64,000 bases of DNA from Mobula birostris (lineage: Eukaryota), in the NCBI RefSeq assembly GCF_030028105.1, contig NC_092398.1:16496182-16560181 (forward strand), read 5' to 3'. Position numbers and translations under genes: made by a program. This document shows, piece by piece, positions 60,940-62,839 of the stretch. Position 1 is the first letter of the stretch. The number at the start of each line of letters is the position of its first letter. Under the pieces are notes generated by a model. That model saw only the letters and a list, made by a program, of their open reading frames with translations, was not told the DNA's origin and did no database searches.

Positions 60940-62009
60940 CTGCAAATGCAGAGAATAAATCGACTCAGACCGTGTAAAACCGGCTCAGCGAAATCTTCTC
61001 ACGTGTTTGGCAAATATTAATGTGTTATTTAAATTTTCAATTTCTCGCATGAATTTTCTACAGATAACCTTTATTTCCGAACTCATTATCACATTTACTA
61101 AGTTTTGTCTCGCGGTGAAGAAAATGTATTCACGTGTTTCGTGAATAGCTGGTTAACTGTTGTAGCAACGTGCAGCATGATGTGTTGTTAGAATGGGATA
61201 TTATCATAAGGTGCCTGTTTTGTTATCATAATTATCGAATATGATAGCATGAACGTTGTTTTCTCCAACTTCCTGAAACTTTGTTCGTCATTATCCTCCC
61301 CTCTTCTCTTCCTCACTCCAGCCTCTTACATCTTGTCGTCACGTCTATCACAATCCATGATGTTCCTCCCCTTCCCTTTCTTCACTTTTCTCTCTCACTC
61401 ATTTTTTTCCAGCCTTTTACTTTTTCCTCTATCTATAACTTATTTAATGATATGGCGCTGAATTGGCCCTTCTGGCCCTTCGAGCTGCTATGATATTGTC
61501 ACAGGCGTCCGCTCTGAGATTGCTCCTGCCTAGGATATTTTTTAAGCTAATTGGAATTCTACCTTGTGAATTACAAACACTGCATCACTTAATACAATCT
61601 AAGTATCTTTTAGAAATCTTACATTTCGTCCCGGATGTCTGCTCCCTTTTACAATTTGTCGAGAATTTGTTTTCTTTTGGGTTGGCATAAAACACATATG
61701 CTAAAAACGTGGACTGCACAGGTTCCAAAGGACCCTGTACGTTTCTCTTCGTGTGACGTTGATGGATTCTATATGGGCACTTGCGATGATTACTGCAAGT
61801 AATCCGGTTCGGAAGGGAGTTGATTGCAGAGATTCATTTACAAGTAATTGTGGAATTATAACCTCTGATTCCAAATGTTTAGAAAATTTTGTGTCTAATT
61901 TGATTCTTCAAACTGACCTTTCTTAACAACCTCTCTTTAATGAATGCATTCTACATCTATAACACTATCTTGTCATCTTACATCGTCAAAATAGCGTCCC
62001 TAAATAGCA

Positions 62010-62360
62010 AACACGAGGAAATCTGCAGATGCTGGAAATTCAAGCAACACACACAAAAGTTGCTGGTGAACGCAGCAGGCCAGCAGCATCTATAGGAAGA
62101 GCTGCAGTCGACGTTTCGGGCCGAGACCCTTCGTCAGGACTAACTAAAAGAAAAGCTAGTAAGAGATTTGAAAGTGGGAAGGGGAGGTGGACATCCGAAA
62201 TGATAGGAGAAGAAAGGAGGGGGCAAGAGCTGGACAGTTGATTGGCACAAGAGATATGAGAGGATCATGGGACAGGAGGCCTAGGGAGAAAGAAAAGGGG
62301 GAGGGGGGATACCCAGAGGATGGGCAAGGGGTATAATGAGAGGGACAGAGGGAGAAAAAA

Positions 62361-62400
<40 letters not shown>

Positions 62401-62626
62401 TGTGTATATAAATAAATAACCGATGGGGTACGAGGGGGAGGTGGGGCATTAGCAGAAGTTTGAGAAGTCAATGTTCATGCCATCAGGTTGGAGGCTACCC
62501 AGACGGAATATAAGGTGTTGTTCTTCCAACCTGAGTGTGGCTTCATCTTTACAGTAGGGGAGGCCGTGGATAGACCTATCGGAATGGGAATGGGACGGGG
62601 AATTAAAATGTGTGGCCAGATTTTAA
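62010..62626 (-). mobile_element. Young 5'-truncated Penelope-like element (GIY-YIG C-terminus plus pLTR)
   Basis: Minus strand ATHFNSPSHSHSD...RLEEQHLIFRLGSLQPDGMNIDFSNFC*; TSD TAAATAGCA at 62001-62009 and 62627-62635. Confidence 0.88.
62105..62142 (-). ncRNA. Minimal type-I hammerhead ribozyme motif in the pLTR
   Basis: UAGUC-CUGACGA-A-GGG-UCUCGG-CCC-GAAA-C-GUC-GACUG: complete core, 5-bp stem I, 3-bp stem II, palindromic ACGU stem III. Confidence 0.8.
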
Positions 62627-62839
62627 TAAATAGCATTTCCCTAAAATATCATTTCTAAATACTGAACCAAGGAATGGCGGTTGCCTCTGGTGTTGACTCT
62701 TGATCACATTGGTTTTCTATCCATCGTATCAGAGTCGTAGAAAAATTAGAGACAACAGATAACGTCTGTTTGATCATCAACCAAACAGCAAGATAGAGAA
62801 ACGGCATTCAAAGAACAATCAACAAAGTTACTTACACAC

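Follow-up and report, generated by a model that had tools for sequence, protein, structure and literature searches.

A hammerhead-bearing Penelope-like element end in a receptor-gene intron of Mobula birostris, and family copy ends suggesting an uncut template RNA

Results

A truncated Penelope-like element lies in the leader intron of an Ig-domain receptor gene

The analyzed window is a 64,000-nt stretch of Mobula birostris DNA (contig NC_092398.1, positions 16,496,182 to 16,560,181), and the insertion under study lies within an Ig-domain receptor gene with a split leader, which is encoded on the minus strand. The following features were found at the locus:

60280-59978, minus strand: host D2 exon
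60657-60939, minus strand: host exon D1 (283 nt), which encodes an Ig domain and is out of frame with D2, from spliced contigs
62001-62009: 3′ copy of a 9-bp target-site duplication (TSD), of which 3 nt overlap the element's end
62007-62618, minus strand: 5′-truncated Penelope-like element (PLE; endonuclease end, pyrimidine-rich 3′ region and pLTR end), 88% identical to the end of the RT/EN-coding copy L024
62105-62142, minus strand: minimal type-I hammerhead with stem I of 5 bp and stem II of 4 bp, predicted cut after C at 62110
62452-62622, minus strand: C-terminal 57 codons of a GIY-YIG endonuclease, then a stop, from comparison with a longer copy
62619-62626, minus strand: 8 nt, likely filler, that separate the TSD from the element, homology to other copies starting at 62618
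62627-62635: 5′ copy of the TSD, the same 9-bp word as at 62001-62009
62840-62872, minus strand: host second leader exon, 33 nt, from spliced contigs

The first leader exon (31 nt) lies approximately 17 kb upstream, beyond the window (L044:8049-8019), and the split leader resembles that of LILR/Fc-receptor genes. The first-pass annotation had put the element in sense orientation in the intron between leader and D1; this was right, and its position can now be refined to between the 33-nt second leader exon and D1, with 1.2 kb separating the hammerhead motif from D1. Leader-D1 joints with GT..AG ends across the element's intron were found in contigs from all four runs of one study, and the order first leader exon, second leader exon, D1 was likewise spliced in 4/4 runs; these four contig sets are RNA by guess, contain GT..AG joints, and leave RNA ends and levels beyond their reach. 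None of the listed contigs bridged either insertion junction, so that the insertion is not demonstrated in the animals from which the contigs came. The 3′ end of D1 is approximately 20 nt shorter than in the paralogues L225 and L226 and lacks part of the last Ig strand, and the D1-D2 joint in the contigs therefore shifts the frame and meets a stop about ten codons into D2. The host mRNA appears frameshifted at D1-D2 and the gene may already be impaired. The early stop predicts a secreted product of approximately 127 aa or a decaying gene, though matching spliced contigs exist. At least 12 paralogous copies of the receptor leader region were found in G000:C34 at 15.56-16.56 Mb (L032-L042), forming an expanded Ig-receptor cluster. 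Elsewhere in the window, positions 4745-16597 hold a histone gene cluster with six histone 3′ stem-loops, five of them above the Rfam cut-off.

The 9-bp TSD proposed for the element proved to be real: 62001-62009 is repeated at 62627-62635, and three paralogous genes (L032, L033 and L034) present the empty site, with contiguous flanks and one copy of the 9-bp word. The first 3 nt of the TSD coincide with the element's fixed 3′ end. TSDs of 9-14 bp that start with 1-3 nt matching the element's last bases were often observed (L003, L004, L007, L009, L013, L017, L026 and the window copy), an overlap that suggests microhomology at priming. In such an insertion, the element's RT-endonuclease would have nicked the target site and approximately 610 nt of uncut RNA would have been copied from the family's fixed 3′ end, leaving the 9-bp duplication.

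The motif had also been placed downstream of a GIY-YIG C-terminus, and this is borne out by the frame at 62622-62452, which is 91% identical (50/55 aa) to the endonuclease end of a longer copy; a Pfam search with the window endonuclease fragment alone gave no relevant match, and in L024 the GIY-YIG motif itself lies upstream of the part retained by the window copy. The window motif is located approximately 100 nt before a 3′ end common to all 30 nearest copies, the 5′ ends of which vary. The description of the element as young holds moderately: the window copy is 93-95% identical to its nearest copies and differs from their majority base at 8/155 positions, whereas other family copies match one another at 98-99% over the ORF start.

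The window element belongs to a family with the layout of Neptune/Nematis PLEs

Longer copies of the family (L024, L076 and L077) contain frames for an RT, then a CX4CxxC linker, which fits the CX2-5CxxC linker of Neptune/Nematis elements, and then a GIY-YIG domain. Pfam searches of family copies returned RVT_1 (E=1.9e-5) and GIY-YIG (E=0.021), both weak and short of the Pfam cut-offs. Family copies thus show the order of an EN+ PLE, RT followed by a C-terminal GIY-YIG, of which no more than the final 57 codons remain in the window copy, and they share a fixed 3′ end, 5′ truncation, partial tandems and inverted 5′ copies. In head-to-tail copies the first in-frame ATG of the ORF follows the motif at a distance of approximately 150 nt, which locates the hammerhead in the pLTR. 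Linker and domain order, rather than a tree, point to a family of the Neptune/Nematis type.

The motif is a minimal type-I hammerhead

The first-pass annotation had claimed a complete hammerhead core on the minus strand at 62142-62105, and both the sequence and a strict descriptor agree. Stem I is UAGUC/GACUG, the core consists of CUGACGA and GAAA with UH, one extra A precedes stem II, and the ACGU is palindromic, as claimed; the palindrome covers 15.2-16.2, and helix III is absent. Stem II, drawn as GGG/CCC in that annotation, is better drawn with 4 bp as GGGU/GCCC and a CUCG loop. C17 is located at 62110, which is the predicted cleavage position given earlier. The window copy retains the canonical G10.1-C11.1 pair and every CpG, and could therefore be among the more competent copies. 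The motif is thus a minimal type-I hammerhead in a PLE pLTR.

The strict descriptor found a single passing site in the whole window, at 62137, and 9 matches in a genome sample of 800 kb, made up of 16 blocks of 50 kb whose round coordinates the analyst chose, compared with 0 in five shuffles and 0 in the reversed sequence. An Rfam search of the window at E up to 10 matched no hammerhead model, a result that carries no weight against a motif without helix III. At 62152-62138 (minus strand), immediately ahead of stem I and inside it, a pyrimidine tract with two AG dinucleotides looks like a splice acceptor; in Drosophila Penelope, an intron has its end at a comparable acceptor at the front of stem I (PMC4209133). 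No splicing into this front was seen among the 15 joints listed, out of 22 in the RNA contigs.

Six further motifs in the window had been proposed as relatives. Relatedness stood for all of them and intactness for none, since they are decayed, split or partial and none passes the strict descriptor:

2450-2887, minus strand: decayed family copy with damaged stems around an intact core
4119-4232: copy split by an inversion within the hammerhead, from sequence comparison
10728-10870, minus strand: older-subfamily copy, ACGU palindrome lost, from sequence comparison
20143-20270, minus strand: older-subfamily copy, decayed, ACGU palindrome lost, from sequence comparison
24515-24604, minus strand: copy without the 5′ half of the hammerhead, from sequence comparison
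44216-44310, minus strand: older-subfamily copy, G12 lost, from sequence comparison

The SINE-looking repeats are truncated ends of the PLE family, as the idea of a ribozyme-bearing pLTR family had implied. A profile built on the stretch 3′ of the motif matched 11 times in the window and 104 times in the 800 kb, with 0 matches in the reversed control, and the window is therefore typical of the genome. Across the whole 4.0-Gb genome, the exact 34-nt motif pattern gave 30,949 matches, compared with 0 in the control. Three similar head-to-head stubs were observed in one intron of the host region (L043, window-equivalent 66234-66385, 68471-68666 and 71185-71380); they carry a divergent hammerhead subfamily with a different stem II loop and stem I, and possibly derive from local duplication.

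The hammerhead core appears to vary less than control positions

To gauge the constraint on the core, single variants of the pattern were counted genome-wide against the 30,949 intact occurrences. G5 variants numbered 294 versus 691 for a control G at a stem end, and U4 variants 323 versus 540 for a loop U, so that core variants were 1.7-2.4 times rarer than same-base controls in these two pairs, between which the sequence context differs. Among 83 pooled copies chosen independently of the motif (loci L045-L082 and L113-L222), core changes were found at 3/747 positions versus 18/1411 in the control (p=0.06), the downstream control (3.3% changes) being left out as inflated by indels and a subfamily site. 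In the younger copies, frequent core variation occurred only at N7 and at CpG sites. These comparisons of copies lend mild support to selection on the hammerhead core in source elements. At position 11.1, 73/83 copies, the dominant recent subfamily, carry U where the window copy has C. The U replaces the conserved G-C by a G-U, or forms an A-U pair if the bulge is dropped, and this counts against an optimized ribozyme.

When metagenomes were scanned for the core pattern, 121 stretches were reported, and the 80 that were listed (L229-L308, with 84 matches) were analyzed. Both stems were present in 39/84 matches, compared with approximately 1% in a swap-and-shuffle control. In the 23 distinct cases the stems vary widely and covary, and G10.1-C11.1 was found in 21/23, the search pattern itself having included the extra A, G10.1 and ACGU. 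None of these 23 hammerheads showed downstream likeness to the ray PLE family. The contigs hold many minimal hammerheads of other lineages, with one large family across several assemblies, and probably derive from animal host DNA.

These data bear on whether the motif is still a ribozyme at all. It might no longer be one even in active source elements, and be kept as a promoter, protein-binding or RT-positioning structure. The G-U at 10.1-11.1 of the dominant recent subfamily speaks for such a role, as do Naiad PLEs, which spread without hammerheads (PMC8557442), and the normal insertion of HHR mutants in vitro (PMC11167929). The rarity of G5 and U4 variants, the restriction of frequent core variation in younger copies to N7 and CpG, and the recurrence of the same core with covarying stems in unrelated sequences argue the other way, and we regard the loss of ribozyme function as rather doubtful.

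The window motif is predicted to misfold and is likely inert in the receptor transcript

For the 38-mer, the predicted fold is a rod that pairs G5-G8 with 15.2-17 and buries the cut site, the pairing probabilities of G5, A6, C7 and G8 being 0.98-1.0; in contexts of 121 and 300 nt, G5, A6 and G8 were predicted to be paired at 0.81-0.98 and C7 at 0.38-0.71. The predicted energy of the active dimer was −16.7 kcal/mol, compared with −25.8 for two misfolded monomers and −34.1 for the best dimer, so that the active dimer falls short of the pair of monomers by 9 kcal/mol and of the best dimer by 17 kcal/mol, in nearest-neighbour energies that omit tertiary contacts and protein assistance. Monomers of metazoan minimal hammerheads do not cleave and dimers cleave weakly (PMC4209133), and an Anolis PLE hammerhead, dispensable for insertion in vitro, cleaves only with the element protein (PMC11167929). 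Without helix III, the motif could cut only as a dimer through the ACGU palindrome, probably within tandem RNA of the element and with assistance from the protein that the element encodes.

A potential partner was found in the first intron, where a second insertion (L043:3298-3685, window-equivalent 65116-65503) carries an intact sense hammerhead and an inverted arm. It lies 3.1 kb upstream of the window copy, and no further intact sense motif was found from the first leader exon to the end of that copy. This motif is predicted to be fully paired within its own inverted repeat (−265 kcal/mol).

Cutting of the receptor transcript had been suggested for the window copy. The intronic copy could act on the pre-mRNA in trans with family transcripts or in cis with the L043 copy, and a double cut would free a fragment with the 33-nt leader exon, lowering or altering receptor output. 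The intact core and sense orientation are compatible with this, as is the second motif upstream of the 33-nt exon, an arrangement expected by chance for approximately 2.4% of copies, and intronic ribozymes such as that of CPEB3 are able to tune expression (PMC10919898). Against it stand the buried partner, the predicted misfold of the monomer together with the published inactivity of monomers, the splicing across the intron in every run, the approximately 750 copies expected to have such a neighbour by chance, and the apparently broken host frame. The spliced contigs prove that intact mRNA exists, without excluding some cutting, and slow intronic ribozymes leave splicing undisturbed (Fong 2009, as cited in PMC10919898). 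The claim of transcript cutting is thus not upheld, and we consider it highly improbable. The lone motif in the pre-mRNA would instead fold as a rod and leave uncut with the spliced-out intron. The window copy is a PLE 3′ end inserted in an intron, and its hammerhead is very probably an inert, idle passenger. A point against this idle state is that trans partners may abound, the PLE family being very heavily represented in the RNA contigs.

Copy 5′ ends accumulate at the front of the hammerhead and not at the cut

The 5′ ends of family copies were located relative to the predicted cut in three sets: 96 sampled copies (104 profile matches, of which 8 without an anchor were dropped), 30 ORF-start copies, and 60 new young copies, which were picked solely by the sequence 3′ of the motif as the first 30 matches for each of two patterns. 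No pile-up was found at the cut, with 4/96 sampled, 0/30 ORF-start and 3/60 young copies ending within 5 nt of it, a result that also fits a role of the motif other than cleavage. Joints exactly at the cut were absent as well, at 0/172 5′ breaks and 0/165 3′ breaks in 1.58 Mb of partly overlapping loci, a sample too small for rare events. At least 22 nt past the cut were present in 23/30 ORF-start and 53/60 young copies. Since most 5′ ends lie beyond the cut and none are piled at it, the template RNA of most insertions was uncut there; re-ligated circles are invisible to this comparison of ends.

The ends pile up instead over stem I and CUGA, in an interval of 22-37 nt before the cut that takes in 23/96 sampled copies, and short stubs as well as copies exceeding unit length contribute to it. 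This interval was defined on the sampled and ORF-start copies and then tested on the 60 new copies: among the copies at risk, 5/23 ORF-start copies ended there (expected 0.8), and 18/53 young copies (expected 1.2-2.3; p at most 5e-10, with one arm of a shared insertion dropped). A common spliced upstream exon was rejected as the cause, because no such exon is common to the non-inverted copies with ends in the interval. The distance covered from the RT start was also rejected, given that copies already spanning the ORF start show the pile-up too.

Run-off at the RNA 5′ end, with a start site at the ribozyme's front edge, is the likeliest cause to be drawn from the copy ends, and a promoter inside the pLTR has been described for Drosophila Penelope (PMC2377424). 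The main rival is that fold-back of the new cDNA, once the hairpin has been copied, produces the pile-up at the same edge. On the run-off reading, the template would be an uncut RNA starting at stem I, the RT would start approximately 100 nt beyond the cut, either in the first pLTR, which yields stubs, or in the last, which yields long copies, and the hammerhead would cut late, rarely or only on protein; we give this full account an even chance.

The young copies include 27/60 stubs ending at most 45 nt upstream of the cut, and the short copies could accordingly be taken for an independent SINE- or retrozyme-like family, excised and circularized by the ribozyme, all the more as PLE-pLTR-derived retrozymes have been described (bioRxiv 10.64898/2026.07.22.740005). 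However, the stubs grade into 5′-truncated PLEs of every length, 19/27 of them are flanked by an inverted arm, they end elsewhere than at the cut, and the window copy keeps endonuclease sequence. Such an independent family is the least probable of the explanations weighed here.

Discussion

The hammerhead class described here is already published (PMC4209133), and the window copy is an ordinary intronic insertion that in itself matters little, being one of approximately 31,000 and probably inert. The purpose of PLE hammerheads has been called unclear (PMC8557442), and the family bears on it, with a copy-end distribution that predicts an RNA 5′ end approximately 30 nt upstream of the cut. Its copies also constitute a very large collection of natural variants of one minimal ribozyme. 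If the template is indeed an uncut RNA starting at stem I, the PLE hammerhead would be a 5′-terminal structure and not a tool for processing, and the RNA start could be mapped from tens of thousands of natural copies without an active element. No paper dealing specifically with the family in rays or sharks was found in the open literature searched, and the family may well be catalogued.

Minimal hammerheads of metazoan PLEs, whose known carriers include Neptune elements of fish (Cervera and De la Pena 2014, PMC4209133), share with the window motif the type-I form, the absence of helix III, the extra nucleotide between 9 and 10.1, the G10.1-C11.1 pair, the palindromic 15.2-16.2 and mostly solitary dispersed copies. 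The copy number is higher here, with 30,949 exact matches, whereas the descriptor of that study gave approximately 4,000 for coelacanth and 9,000 for Xenopus, although the methods differ. Shark, skate or chimaera terms are absent from its supplement file 2 and from the consulted part of its text.

The Neptune/Nematis EN+ PLEs of Craig et al. (2021, PMC8557442) share the RT, the CX2-5CxxC linker and the C-terminal GIY-YIG with its two internal cysteines, together with 5′ truncation, partial tandems and adjacent inverted copies. Unlike in their description, microsatellite targeting is not evident at the window site; truncation and inverted copies are treated there generally, and the consulted part makes no mention of a 5′-end hot spot at the hammerhead front. 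PAc, a Poseidon element of Anolis (Frangieh et al. 2024, PMC11167929), likewise has its hammerhead just upstream of a fixed 3′ insertion end, which here lies approximately 100 nt past the cut, and uses unprocessed RNA as template. The PAc ORF starts in stem II, whereas the first in-frame ATG of the ray family lies approximately 150 nt downstream of the motif, and the consulted account of PAc is silent on a 5′-end pile-up at the motif's front edge.

Non-LTR retrozymes (bioRxiv 10.64898/2026.07.22.740005), reported in one chondrichthyan, share a type-I hammerhead from PLE pLTRs; they are tandem repeats with a ribozyme in each unit and no coding sequence, whereas the window copy is a solitary truncated PLE end with an endonuclease remnant. 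The intronic CPEB3 ribozyme (PMC10919898) shares the placement of a self-cleaving motif, putative in the present case, in sense within an intron. It is HDV-like and conserved, and its monomer cleaves itself with a half-life of 2-3 min, whereas the window copy is absent from three paralogues, predicted to misfold and partnerless, unlike a ribozyme that regulates its host from a conserved position.
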